Assembly: GCA_002269645.1 (NCBI GenBank)
Contig: NIVC01000615.1
Coordinates: 124,001-188,000, forward strand
Direction of reading: 5' to 3'
DNA: 64,000 nt
DNA from: Macrostomum lignano
Taxonomy: Eukaryota
The translations under genes and the position numbers were made by a program. The stretch's first letter is position 1; every line of letters starts with the position of its first letter. Below the pieces are notes generated by a model, which did no database searches, was not told the origin of the DNA, and was given only the letters and a program-made list of their open reading frames with translations. Of the stretch, positions 47,160-64,000 are shown piece by piece.

Positions 47160-58950
<11,791 letters not shown>

Positions 58951-59010
58951 AGGTAGCCAAGCCTGAATTGCTTTTAATCCTCTTTTTTTCTAGCTGCTCT
59001 CAAATATTTT

Positions 59011-59360
59011 TGTTGTACTCGCGACTCCCAGGACGGGGTAACACCGCCGCGAGCGATGTTAAATAGCACACGCCCGCGGAGGGGGGGAGGGCCACGTGCT
59101 CTCAACACCACCACCCCACCAACCCCCCAGCCAACCCCTCCCCCCCCGGGGGACGGCCACCCAGCCCGCCGCCGGCTCAGCCAATCACTACGCGACTGGC
59201 TGGCCGCGGCCAATCGCCACGCAGGACGAGCAAAACCTGCCAAGGCTAAAGCCTCTGACGCACAAAAAAGGGGGGAAAACAAACTGCCAACACTTAATTG
59301 AGGGCTGACTCAGCCCGCCGGGCTAGGTGCATTGGCACCGCAAAAGTGCACAACACAACA
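59011..59360 (-). repeat. 3' LTR, 350 bp
   Basis: Begins TGTTGT immediately after the PPT (minus strand, 59360) and ends ACAACA (59011): 6-bp terminal inverted repeat. Contains two ATTGG (CCAAT) boxes, GC-rich tracts, CACGTG and TATTTAA. Confidence 0.85.
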
Positions 59361-59371
59361 CCCCGCCCTCC
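59361..59371 (-). promoter_or_regulatory. Polypurine tract (plus-strand primer) GGAGGGCGGGG
   Basis: Preceded by a T-tract and directly followed by the TG of the LTR. Confidence 0.8.
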
Positions 59372-59841: not shown

Positions 59842-60825
59842 CTAGCACTCGCACGCCACCACACGAGCACACCAGCGCAGCAGCGCCTGGACCTGACCCG
59901 CACCTAGCAGTTCGAACCGAGGGATCACCACCTTCCGCATCACTCGCGCTGCTCGCTTTAAACATTTGCGTTTCCAACCGCTCCGACGACCGCGTCCCTT
60001 GGACCACGTCACTGAAATGTCCCGGCGCAGAAATTTAAGCACTTGAAGTGTCACCGCCGTCAGATAACGACTCGGCTCTTCTCGCCGCACCCTAAACAGG
60101 TCAGCCAGCTCCTCAAACACGTTCACGATCTCTTCCTCCTCGCCCTTCAGCAGTGCCGTTCTCAGACTCCGGCGCAGCTCCACAAATCTCGTTGTGCTCG
60201 GTAACGGTAGCTCCTCCATCTCGACTGTCGTCGCCCCTACCGGTACCAGCTTCCAACCCTCGACATCCGTCAGGTCCTCCCCGTCTGTTTCCATCTCTCC
60301 GATCTGGTCTGTTTCGTCGTCACTGATAATGATGCAATAGCCGCTGTCTGGCGCATAGCTTCGCTCGAATGACTGACGAAAACCCTGCTCCTCTGCCTCC
60401 CAGTCGGGCGGCCGACTTCCGTCGCTGACGGCAGACTCACTGTCGGTTACCACGGGTTCGTCGTCTCCAACGCAGGCGTCTGCATCCGACTGCTCGTCCT
60501 CGCTCGGCATGTCCTCATCTTCCAGCCTGATTGCTTCCAGGATGTCCTCTGGCACGGGAATGCCTGGCGGGGGCTGAACCTGTCTAGCCAACTCCACCGC
60601 ACCACTGAAAGACACGGACTCCTCACCGAACAGGTCGTACAGCCACCGCCGAAATGGGCAACCGAGAATTTCATACGCGACGTTGAGGGCTTTGCATTTC
60701 TCTTCTGCGAATGCTCGGTCCGGGTGCTTGTCCGGGTGATACTTCAGGGCTAGCCGCCGATAGGCTCTCTTGACTGCAGTTGCCTCCACCCACTGGTCGA
60801 TCTCCAGTTCGTCGTACAAGGACAT
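59842..60825 (-). CDS. Retrotransposon accessory ORF: J-domain (DnaJ/Hsp40) protein, 327 aa
   Basis: LYDELEI...VKRAYRRLALKYHPDKHP....EEKCKALNVAYEILG.PFRRWLYDLFG is a full J-domain with HPD. The ORF is uninterrupted, on the same strand as pol, between the integrase stop (60946) and the PPT (59371). Confidence 0.9.
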   Translation of the reverse strand: MSLYDELEIDQWVEATAVKRAYRRLALKYHPDKHPDRAFAEEKCKALNVAYEILGCPFRRWLYDLFGEESVSFSGAVELARQVQPPPGIPVPEDILEAIRLEDEDMPSEDEQSDADACVGDDEPVVTDSESAVSDGSRPPDWEAEEQGFRQSFERSYAPDSGYCIIISDDETDQIGEMETDGEDLTDVEGWKLVPVGATTVEMEELPLPSTTRFVELRRSLRTALLKGEEEEIVNVFEELADLFRVRREEPSRYLTAVTLQVLKFLRRDISVTWSKGRGRRSGWKRKCLKRAARVMRKVVIPRFELLGAGQVQALLRWCARVVACEC

Positions 60826-60945
60826 CTACGGAGTGCCGTTTCTAGCCGTTAAACTCTCATTTCTCCGCTACTAAACCTGGTCCGTGTGCCTGCCGACTCA
60901 TCCACCCGCTCCAACCACCTAACCCGCCGACAATCCCCAACCCGC

Positions 60946-62415
60946 TCAGAACCTTAGCCGATCTGGCGGTCGCCTGAGCCGAGTCGGATATCTCCTGGTG
61001 GTGAAGGTCTCCGCTGCGGGCGCTTCTGGTCCTTCCCATTCTTCTGGTGGATCTAGTCCTTCCCATTCTTCCGGCAGGCCACTTTGCGGCGACTCCGAGC
61101 TTCTCACGTTGCCATCGACCTCGTTCTCCAGCCCTGGCTCGACCTCCGCTGGTGGTGGTCGACCACGTCGGCCTACCTGCTCAGCTTCTTCCTCTTCATC
61201 TTCTTGGCTCTGCGCGTCCTCTGTCACCGCACCTCCTTCCTCCTGTCTCGCTTCGTTCGTCGCTGACTTCGACTTCTTGAAAGGCGACAGGTTGTTGAAA
61301 TGTACTCTTTTGGTCTTCCTTGGATTAGCCGGATTCTGAACTTCGTACACGGTCTCAGAAATCTTCCGCACCACTTCCACTGGTCCCTTCCAATCAACCC
61401 GGAACTTGTTCGGCACCTCCCCAGGCTTGGCTGGCACGAAAACAAAAACTCGGTCCCCTGGTTGGTGCGCGGATCCCCGTACTTTCCTGTCGTAATAGTC
61501 CTTCTGCAACTTCTGGTATGTGCCGGTCGCTTGTCGCACTGCTTCATGTGCCTGATGGAGGTGCTTTCTCAAGCCGGCCACGTACGTTGACTCGTCCAGC
61601 GGCTCTTGTGGTGTTTTGTAAGCTACATCCAGTGGTAATCGCATCTCTTGGCCGTGCAGGAGGAAGTACGGTGTGTAGCCAGTGCCGCGATGCACACTTG
61701 AACGGTACGCCATCAAGGCTGAGTCGATTAGTTCATCCCATTTGTGTGACTCTGCTCCCTCAGCGATGTAGCTCCGCAGTACTGACTTCAACGTCTGATT
61801 GAACTTCTCCACCTGCCCATTTCCACTTGGGTGGTAGGCCGTGGTTCTGGTTTTCTGGATTTTCAGCAGCGTGCACAGCTCTTGCATTACTCGAGACTCG
61901 AAGTTCCGCCCTTGGTCACTGTGAATCGAACTCGGGCAACCGTAGATACTAATCCAGTGCCCAAATATGGCGCGCGCCACTGTTGATGCTCGTTGGTTAC
62001 GGATCGGGATCGCTGCCGGCCATTTAGTGAACGCATCCTGCAGCGTTAAGATGTACTGATGACCTCTGGCACTCCTTGGCAACGGCCCGACAATGTCCAC
62101 CATCACTCTCTCAAAAGGTTCGCCCGTTCGAATCGGCTCCAGTGGAGCTCTAGCCTTCTTCGCCAACTTCGAGCGGCCGCAGACTTCGCAGCTCCTTACG
62201 CACTCAGCGATCTCGCGGCTGATCCCGGGTCTCCAGAACCGTGCAAGGACCTTTCGCTTTGTCTTCTGCAGGCCGAAATGGCCGCCCGCCACGCCGCTAT
62301 GACAGTCTATCACAATCCTCTGCAGCAGACACTGTGGTAGCACAATCTGGTCCGTGCCTTTCCACCTCCGCACCAATATCCCGCCGTCCACCTTGAGCAG
62401 CTCGCACTGCGCCAT
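60946..62415 (-). CDS. pol: pol: integrase (HHCC zinc finger, DDE core, GPY/F-like C-terminus)
   Basis: H..GVAGGHFG...C.VC; MVDIVGP, HSDQGRNF, NGQVEKFN; WKGPVEV; terminal RRYPTRLRRPPDRL. Confidence 0.95.
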   Translation of the reverse strand: MAQCELLKVDGGILVRRWKGTDQIVLPQCLLQRIVIDCHSGVAGGHFGLQKTKRKVLARFWRPGISREIAECVRSCEVCGRSKLAKKARAPLEPIRTGEPFERVMVDIVGPLPRSARGHQYILTLQDAFTKWPAAIPIRNQRASTVARAIFGHWISIYGCPSSIHSDQGRNFESRVMQELCTLLKIQKTRTTAYHPSGNGQVEKFNQTLKSVLRSYIAEGAESHKWDELIDSALMAYRSSVHRGTGYTPYFLLHGQEMRLPLDVAYKTPQEPLDESTYVAGLRKHLHQAHEAVRQATGTYQKLQKDYYDRKVRGSAHQPGDRVFVFVPAKPGEVPNKFRVDWKGPVEVVRKISETVYEVQNPANPRKTKRVHFNNLSPFKKSKSATNEARQEEGGAVTEDAQSQEDEEEEAEQVGRRGRPPPAEVEPGLENEVDGNVRSSESPQSGLPEEWEGLDPPEEWEGPEAPAAETFTTRRYPTRLRRPPDRLRF

Positions 62416-63079
62416 GAGCGCTTTGCCCCCTGGTCAATCTCAGCTTTTCGCTCACGCTCTCATTTCCGCTGACCAGCTCCTTCATCCATCGAATCTGGTC
62501 TTCCTCGTCCTGAGCTTTTACCAGTTCATGTCGCTCGTCAGCCACGTTCAGCGCACTCACACCATTTGAGATCACTGGTGCAACATCTGAGCAGGACGGA
62601 CATTCCAAGAAGCCTGCATGTCGCCGGGCCCGCTGCGATGCACCACGTAGTAATCGAATTCTGCCAGCTTCTCCAGCCACCTAGCACACTGACCTTCCGG
62701 ATCCTTCAGATTGTGAATCCACTTCAAGTTGTTGTGATCAGTTCGCAAGCAGAATCTTCTTCCCGCCAGGTAGTACCGATACTTGACCATGAACGTCACC
62801 ACCGCCAGCAGTTCTACTCTCGTCGTGCAATAGTTCCGCTCTGCCGATGACAACGATCTTGAGCCATACGCAATAACCTTCTCACTACCGTCCACTTGCT
62901 TCTGAGACAACACGGCGCCAACGCCAATAGATGAGCTCGCATCCGTGTCGAGAATGAACTCGCCAGCCTCGGGTCCAAAATCCGGAAACGCCATCACGTC
63001 TGTACTCGTCAGCCGCGCTTTCAAGTCCCGAACGATCGCTCTTCGTCCGGTCCCCACTCAAACTCGACACCTTTGCGAG
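62416..63079 (-). pseudogene. pol: pol: RT connection/RNase H/linker, interrupted by apparent frameshifts
   Basis: FILDTDASS.GVGAVLSQ, VIAYGSR.L...ERNYCTT..ELLAVV, FCLRTDH..LKW, ARWLEKLAEFDY. Frame changes near 63148, 63028, 62628 and 62440. Confidence 0.88.
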
Positions 63080-64000
63080 TCAACCTGAGCAGCGGCTCGG
63101 CAACACTCGAGAAGTTTTTAATAAAACGGCGGTAATAGCTGCACAATCCATGAACGATTGCACGTCTCTGGTGTTCTTCGGTTGGGGCCAGTTTCTGATC
63201 ACTTCGACCTTCTCACTCTCCGTCTCCACTCCCGCCTCCGACACTTGATGGCCCAGGAACGTTACCTTCTTCATCAGAAAATGACACTTCTCCGGCTTCA
63301 ACTTAACTCCAGCCTTCCGCAGCCGTATGAACACCTCTTCTAACCTTTCCAGATGCTCGTCAACCGTCTTGGACCACACCAGGATATCGTCCAGGTAGAT
63401 TAAGCACGTCTTCCAGGCCACGTCGCGCATTGCCAGAGCCATCAGTCGCGTGAAAGTTGCAGGGCTATTGACGAGTCCGAACGGCATCACTTTCCACACG
63501 TACTGACCCTTCAGAGGCACCGAGAAGGCCGTCTTGAGTTGATCCTCCGGTCTTACTTTCACCTGCCAGTAGCCGCTGTGGAGGTCCATCGAGCTGAACA
63601 CTCTTGCTCCCGCCAGTTCGTCCAATGCATCGTCCATCCTCGGCAACGGAATAGCATCTCTCGTCGTTACTTTATTCAAACCACGGTAGTCTACACACAT
63701 CCGTAAACTGCCATCCTTCTTGCGTACACAAACGATTGGCGCGTTCCAAGGAGACTGTGCTGACTCAATGCGTCCTTGCTCCTCAAGTTCATCCACGAGA
63801 GCATGCACTTCTTGCCTAAGGTGCGGGGGCAGTCTCCGCGGCGGGATGTTGACCGGCTTGGCCTCTCCAGTGTCGATCTGGTGCTCCACCAAGGGTGTCA
63901 CACCCAACTGTGCTGAGTCCGTCGCGAAAAGATCACCGTACGCGTCGACTAAGTTCTTAAACCGCTGGTGCTGCCTCTCAGTCGCCATTCCGTCGCCCCA
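63080..64000 (-). CDS. pol: pol: reverse transcriptase (frame open to the window edge)
   Basis: LRMCVDYRGLN, LPRMDD, DLHSGYWQV, KTAF, MPFGLVNSPATF, YLDDILV, KPEKC, FLGHQV. Confidence 0.97.
   Translation of the reverse strand, partial: WGDGMATERQHQRFKNLVDAYGDLFATDSAQLGVTPLVEHQIDTGEAKPVNIPPRRLPPHLRQEVHALVDELEEQGRIESAQSPWNAPIVCVRKKDGSLRMCVDYRGLNKVTTRDAIPLPRMDDALDELAGARVFSSMDLHSGYWQVKVRPEDQLKTAFSVPLKGQYVWKVMPFGLVNSPATFTRLMALAMRDVAWKTCLIYLDDILVWSKTVDEHLERLEEVFIRLRKAGVKLKPEKCHFLMKKVTFLGHQVSEAGVETESEKVEVIRNWPQPKNTRDVQSFMDCAAITAVLLKTSRVLPSRCSG

Follow-up and report, generated by a model that had tools for sequence, protein, structure and literature searches.

A J-domain gene downstream of pol in Ty3/Gypsy retrotransposons of Macrostomum lignano

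A Ty3/Gypsy LTR retrotransposon of Macrostomum lignano carries, after pol, a third open reading frame (ORF3) that encodes a J-domain protein. There can be very little doubt that ORF3 sits between the LTRs, is propagated together with the element and evolves under purifying selection. Judged by sequence relationships, it belongs to a lineage made up of the element described here (family A) and at least six further families (B-G). It is a real accessory gene in an ordinary position, with an unusual cargo, and it is apparently undescribed: the literature that we searched, a search whose scope excluded Repbase and GyDB, contains no description of a J-domain ORF3 in an LTR retrotransposon, in keeping with what the original prediction had supposed, and the main text of a paper on M. 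lignano LTR elements (PMC12801592) does not mention DnaJ, J-domain, Hsp40, chaperone or ORF3.

The window, the whole stretch of 64,000 nucleotides that was analysed (contig NIVC01000615.1, positions 124,001 to 188,000), holds the element on its minus strand (Table 1). Including the neighbouring stretch of the contig (C615), the element is complete at 8,036 nt, ends in TGTTG...CAACA and possesses a primer-binding site, a polypurine tract (PPT) and a 4-bp target-site duplication (TSD). With the PPT, both LTRs and the TSD located, the stop-free frame of 327 codons is inside the element, as had been claimed, and its distance from the integrase stop and the CCGTAG directly before its ATG were likewise as predicted. 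About 480 nt separate the end of ORF3 from the 3' LTR, which is internally deleted (350 nt compared with 825 nt in the 5' LTR beyond the window); over 321 aligned bases the two LTRs are 99.4% identical. The pol gene of this copy is frameshifted and spread over three frames. A sister copy encodes zf-CCHC, aspartyl protease (298-383), reverse transcriptase (RT, 633-794), RNase H (857-990) and integrase (1111-1462), and its order of gag and then PR-RT-RH-IN, with which the window agrees, is that of Ty3/Gypsy elements. In pol of the window and sister copies Pfam finds no chromodomain of the kind that a chromovirus has at the integrase C-terminus, and ORF3 has neither the transmembrane segment (highest 19-residue hydropathy 1.04) nor the env Pfam match of an errantivirus, so that the predicted "env position" holds for the location after pol and not for an envelope-like protein. 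M. lignano has 40 Gmr1/Osvaldo and nine CsRN1 families (PMC12801592). Primer-binding sites vary among the families studied here, even between A and A2, which suggests switches of primer tRNA.

Table 1. Features of the window element (positions are those of the window)
Feature	Position	Strand	Evidence
ORF3, 327 aa: J-domain, acidic linker and helical domain	59842..60825	-	ORF list, Pfam, model
J-domain, aa 3-64; HPD codons 60738-60730	60634..60819	-	Pfam PF00226 E 4.3e-16; pLDDT ~90
Two helices prolonging the J-domain, aa 73-104; P92 conserved across families	60514..60609	-	alignment, model
Acidic linker, aa 111-201, predicted disordered	60223..60495	-	pLDDT < 50; net charge -12 in 25 aa
Unnamed five-helix C-terminal domain, aa 212-324	59854..60192	-	model pLDDT 88.5, pTM 0.82
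Arg/Lys-rich loop, aa 274-298, within the C-terminal domain		-	net charge +12 in 25 aa
TAG directly before the ORF3 ATG, candidate 3' splice acceptor	60826..60828	-	sequence signal
Spacer, pol stop to ORF3, 120 nt	60826..60945	-	sequence
Integrase frame of pol: H2C2, rve, p58_C	60946..62433	-	Pfam
RNase H frame of pol	62572..63057	-	ORF list, Pfam
Reverse transcriptase frame of pol	63080..64000	-	Pfam; protease, gag and 5' LTR beyond the window
Polypurine tract	59361..59371	-	sequence
3' LTR, TGTTG...CAACA	59011..59360	-	LTR alignment
4-bp target-site duplication	59007..59010	-	flank comparison

The element was inserted antisense, about 60 nt beyond a rhodopsin-family GPCR exon (58447-58953, plus strand; 7tm_1 E 1e-8). 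Elsewhere in the window, an open frame at 52322-53092 (minus strand) has a weak WH1/EVH1-like match (E 0.075) and is possibly an exon of a WASP-like gene.

A DNA search with family A gave 13 matches, six of them full length at 94-100%. The five copies that have both LTRs represent four insertions, each with a different TSD; the copies on C5015 and C1138 share flanks and are thus one insertion. The insertions are recent, because the LTRs of each pair are 98.9-99.8% identical. In none of the five copies are gag, pol and ORF3 all uninterrupted, and ORF3 is whole in three of them; some of the frame breaks may be assembly errors.

The Pfam DnaJ model matches residues 3-64 of the protein at 59 bits (cut-off 27.8), and with HPD at residues 30-32 and the helix II motif KRAYRRLALKYHPD the J-domain is as complete as the original prediction described it. 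In helix III, family A has Cys where the host J-domains that we fetched mostly have Phe, and this Phe is regarded as important in J-domains. The structural model is confident for the J-domain and the two extra helices (residues 1-104) and for the five-helix domain, with a disordered linker between. By its helical J-domain with HPD the protein is a predicted class C J-protein; there is no Pfam match to DnaJ_C or a zinc finger, and the model is all-helical, unlike class A and B Hsp40s with their G/F region and beta-sandwich client domain. The core common to the families consists of the J-domain, the acidic linker and the unnamed helical domain with its Arg-rich loop. The acidic tract is found in all 12 aligned proteins and the loop, which from its composition could act as a nuclear signal or bind nucleic acid, in 11, the Logan protein P0003 ending before it. 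Used alone, the C-terminal domain has no Pfam match, no usable Atlas match and no Foldseek match at E <= 0.001, and its best VIA match (Z 8.1, rmsd 4.0 over 118 residues) is ordinary for helical bundles. Against 1.84 billion proteins it gave nine matches, seven of them element-type proteins; the other two, P0129 and P0130, were dismissed as repeat-protein noise, leaving no host match. Alignments of the C-terminal and TatD-bearing parts retrieved, as queries, M. lignano proteins only.

How widely is ORF3 distributed among the retrotransposons of this genome? The C-terminal part as a protein query gave 63 matches and the J-domain 137, with 150 of 209 candidates scored. Forty J-match loci were fetched, of which 13 have integrase directly upstream, 21 are host-type DNAJ genes and six are element-type J-domains on stretches without integrase; further families came from RT relatives. 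ORF3 encodes 327 amino acids in family A, 315 in B (23 equal-scoring matches), 293 in C (20 matches), 328 in D (21 matches; L132:6995-7978) and 283 in F, these match counts exceeding the number of insertions in an assembly that the available part of PMC12801592 describes as redundant. The family E protein (L120:1317-2672; every copy examined is broken) combines J, helical and TatD-like parts, and that of family G (L168:7197-8870; two copies examined) has 558 amino acids, a J-like domain without HPD and a TatD-like part. Between families, ORF3 proteins are about 22-35% identical. With element boundaries set by hand, a 4-bp TSD flanks 18 of 19 elements of the ORF3 lineage, and a TSD was found in 21 of the 23 elements checked overall.

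Two modules have been added to the common core in particular families. Family D has, in the region of the acidic linker, a Pfam chromodomain at residues 151-201 (E 1.4e-12; omega 0.23), which is confined to D among the element families, is absent from family A and recurs in P0003; in both proteins Val or Leu occupies one position of the putative aromatic cage. The TatD-like domain is part of ORF3 in E (Pfam E 1e-7) and G (9e-5). Element H, which is young (LTRs 99.7% identical), has only the TatD-like end of ORF3, and no ORF3 is recognisable in the related elements I, C1 and C103, which are multi-copy. In family I (L167, C23), which is sister to G by RT, roughly 1.1 kb separates pol from the LTR and contains a stop-free frame of 247 codons unrelated to ORF3. 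The backbone of the RT tree is unresolved for ORF3 carriers relative to C1 and C103. In the J-domain tree, which makes the comparison with host DNAJ genes called for by the original prediction, the 16 element-type rows fall on one side of a branch supported at 59/93, which neither establishes nor rejects their grouping, and no host donor emerged.

Selection on ORF3 was assessed by pairwise Nei-Gojobori estimates on aligned codons, in which the pairs are not independent and dN is possibly lowered by the local-identity filter and raised by post-insertion decay; omega was 0.08-0.34 in 13 of 14 pairs, and the fourteenth, a D pair, was saturated, with pN/pS 0.32. The bootstrap pN/pS interval lay below 1 for every whole-ORF3 pair. 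Between A and A2, omega was 0.25 for ORF3 (pN/pS interval 0.14-0.50), 0.08 for RT and 0.38 for integrase; the J-domain alone gave pN/pS 0.40 (interval 0.09-1.41), not significantly below 1. Family A compared with three old copies gave 0.20-0.27, and with C864 0.30. Omega for ORF3 was 0.17 in B, 0.17-0.19 in C, 0.24 in D, 0.08-0.14 in E and 0.34 in G, and J-domains of deep pairs gave 0.11-0.17. Eleven of the 13 element J-domains compared retain HPD; it is missing from the decayed copies C17, C543 and C518 and from family G.

Could ORF3 instead be a single retrocopied host DNAJ gene that evolves neutrally or falls outside the element? One family's ORF3 is indeed annotated in NCBI/UniRef as a host hypothetical or "J domain-containing protein" (gene BOX15_Mlig001265; g8, g11), but this annotation describes nothing other than the ORF3 of family D. 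The LTR boundaries, independent TSDs of at least four insertions, presence in seven families, omega well below 1 and a C-terminal domain matched only in element-type proteins refute this reading, which we regard as wholly improbable; none of single copy number, neutral evolution and a place outside the LTRs, named in the original prediction as fatal to it, was found, and its captured, maintained accessory gene stands. Some M. lignano proteins annotated as host DNAJ genes are therefore element cargo. Older gene models also merge element ORFs with host genes, as in P0123 (with MutS) and P0125.

Seven homologues of ORF3 come from Logan (P0002-P0004, P0126, P0131) and JGI (P0127, P0128) sequences. 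Five of them include the J-domain; all five have kept HPD, and their identity to the window protein is 24-44%. In the J-domain comparison, three of three Logan homologues have HPD. A second metagenome scan gave 80 J-only loci, none with RT, RNase H or integrase, and its single longer match, L184, proved to be an ordinary Hsp40.

The start of ORF3 bears on how the protein is made. Among 14 ORF3 starts, drawn from seven lineages, seven have AG directly before the ATG and two have it 1 nt off; all three E copies read CAG/TG, and in G and C the AG lies 7 and 16 nt upstream, respectively. Pyrimidine tracts before these acceptors are modest. The LTRs of A, A2, B, C, D and F have GTAAGY donor-like sites within positions 481-615, for which the chance probability is 0.14-0.39 per LTR, and these sites are only suggestive because the ORF3-less I and C103 have them too. 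Three E-type LTRs have an A before GTAAGA, which on splicing would complete the ATG of the E lineage; a fourth (C441, 3' LTR region) has no such site. The available part of PMC2585583 describes the start codon of gypsy env as completed by splicing in this way (AT+G). The M. lignano spliced leader has 44 nt and ends in ATG (PMC5173321), which would be out of frame at CAG/TG of E, and trans-splicing to ORF3 is thereby disfavoured. The signals thus favour cis-splicing from an LTR donor, and ORF3 is probably translated from an RNA in which a short LTR exon is joined to the AG before the ATG; from the predicted spliced or trans-spliced mRNA, the first form gains by the AG at or near all 14 starts and the second loses. 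Contigs of three putative RNA runs, which are unsuited to ranking genes, cover parts of the whole element including ORF3, and their listed joints and loose ends include no junction at position 60826 before the ATG, where one had been expected.

Two side observations concern the LTRs. In the family C LTR (L131:1104-1145; both LTRs; eight loci) there is a sense-oriented stretch with 42 of the 44 nt of the spliced leader (PMC5173321), which follows an AT-rich box at a distance of about 29 nt and precedes a donor-like site; a 24-nt part of it matches at least 100 places in the genome. This stretch may mark the transcription start, and family C RNA may begin with a built-in copy of the leader. A link to heat shock was rejected: a canonical HSE is found in none of ten LTRs of lineages A-I. 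ORF3-less C1 (L171; 340-nt LTRs, multi-copy) has one and is possibly the heat-induced Gmr1/Osvaldo family of PMC12801592.

What might a retrotransposon do with a J-domain protein? We tentatively favour, at somewhat less than an even chance, a nuclear adaptor that targets Hsp70 and loosens the repression that the host imposes on chromatin or nascent RNA of the element itself. Versions with HPD would likely stimulate host Hsp70, given the intact J-domain. If they do, the chances are about balanced that Hsp70 is recruited, through the basic helical domain, acidic linker and interchangeable chromodomain or TatD-like modules, to a host complex bound to nucleic acid, and that it remodels this complex, by analogy with the J-domain of polyomavirus T antigen. 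Derepression of chromatin or nascent RNA is ranked first because lineages have added a chromodomain and a nuclease-like fold to a protein with acidic and basic tracts. Against it count the absence of a chromodomain and the helix III Cys in family A, the altered cage residue in D, selection on G (omega 0.34) without HPD, the young H with only the TatD-like end, and I without ORF3. Since G lacks HPD and H and I lack the J part, Hsp70 recruitment can be neither the sole role nor needed in every copy.

Family G also invites the proposal that the J-domain has become a mere scaffold or dominant-negative decoy, with selection acting on a function of the helical domain and Hsp70 activation being dispensable. 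G lacks HPD yet is selected, most strongly in the helical domain (omega 0.09), and the helix III Cys of family A fits too; but six of the seven families, at synonymous distances that are saturated, still have HPD, as do the five Logan and JGI homologues that include a J-domain, and we consider the proposal improbable. Splicing from LTR to ORF3 would leave the element with the need to export its genomic RNA unspliced, and ORF3 could instead be an export factor like Rev or CERV, its Arg-rich loop binding that RNA while Hsp70 strips splicing or retention factors. The donor-like and acceptor signals, the loop itself and a TatD-like fold that could bind single-stranded nucleic acid are in its favour, as is the precedent of Cer1 CERV, which comes from a spliced mRNA and is needed for the export of gRNA (PMC10309623). 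H and I are young without the J gene and the D chromodomain points to chromatin, leaving this role doubtful. Several reverse-transcribing elements depend on Hsp70/Hsp40. A cytoplasmic chaperone adaptor for particle assembly, which the original prediction named first, or for uncoating or maturation of reverse transcriptase would accord with this and with the intact J-domain, and a chaperone role has been proposed for plant env-like ORFs (PMC7264820, in the part available). The chromodomain, TatD-like fold and basic loop fit nucleic acid or chromatin better, and the related C1, C103 and I are multi-copy without ORF3; we think it unlikely.

The nuclear adaptor can be worded more boldly, and then more tentatively still: one captured J-domain, a new helical domain and exchangeable readers (chromodomain, TatD-like) might aim host Hsp70 at silencing complexes, a T-antigen-like form of anti-silencing. 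The literature that we searched apparently contains no description of chaperone-driven anti-silencing in any transposon. To our knowledge, few transposon-encoded counter-defence proteins are known in animals. Selection has kept a J-domain gene in seven deeply diverged families, which suggests a place for Hsp70 as a lever in the conflict between host and transposon, and, as M. lignano permits RNAi and transgenesis, the target of ORF3 can be found.

ORF3 can be set beside several known systems. LTR retrotransposons of bdelloid rotifers, in the available part of PMC5408684, carry non-env ORF3s encoding a DEDDy exonuclease or GDSL esterase, and like these, ORF3 is a captured non-envelope gene with modular cargo between pol and the 3' LTR of Ty3/Gypsy-type elements. 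Unlike those hydrolases, it encodes an Hsp70 co-chaperone domain and an unnamed helical domain, with a TatD-like domain in two families only. Other non-env ORF3s are described in PMC7264820, PMC6338049 and PMC13524379, whose available parts do not mention DnaJ. Drosophila gypsy env, in the portion available of PMC2585583, is likewise a third ORF after pol, and ORF3 is likewise probably spliced, with a splice-completed start codon in E; unlike env, it has no transmembrane segment or env similarity, and its donor-like site is in the LTR, that of gypsy being near gag. CERV of C. elegans Cer1 is, like ORF3, an accessory protein encoded by an LTR retrotransposon of an animal; it comes from a spliced mRNA and acts on the expression of its own element, as ORF3 may, and no J-domain is mentioned for it in the available part of PMC10309623. 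Among host proteins, ORF3 resembles class C J-proteins such as DNAJC9 in having a J-domain without G/F, zinc-finger or class A/B client domains and in its acidic region, and differs from them in a C-terminal domain without a host match. DNAJC9, a host class C J-protein with an acidic region, is a histone co-chaperone. Polyomavirus T antigens and other viral J-proteins possess an N-terminal J-domain followed by separate targeting parts, and their targets are known. ORF3 shares this arrangement of an N-terminal J-domain with separate parts, but it is encoded by a retrotransposon and not by a DNA virus.
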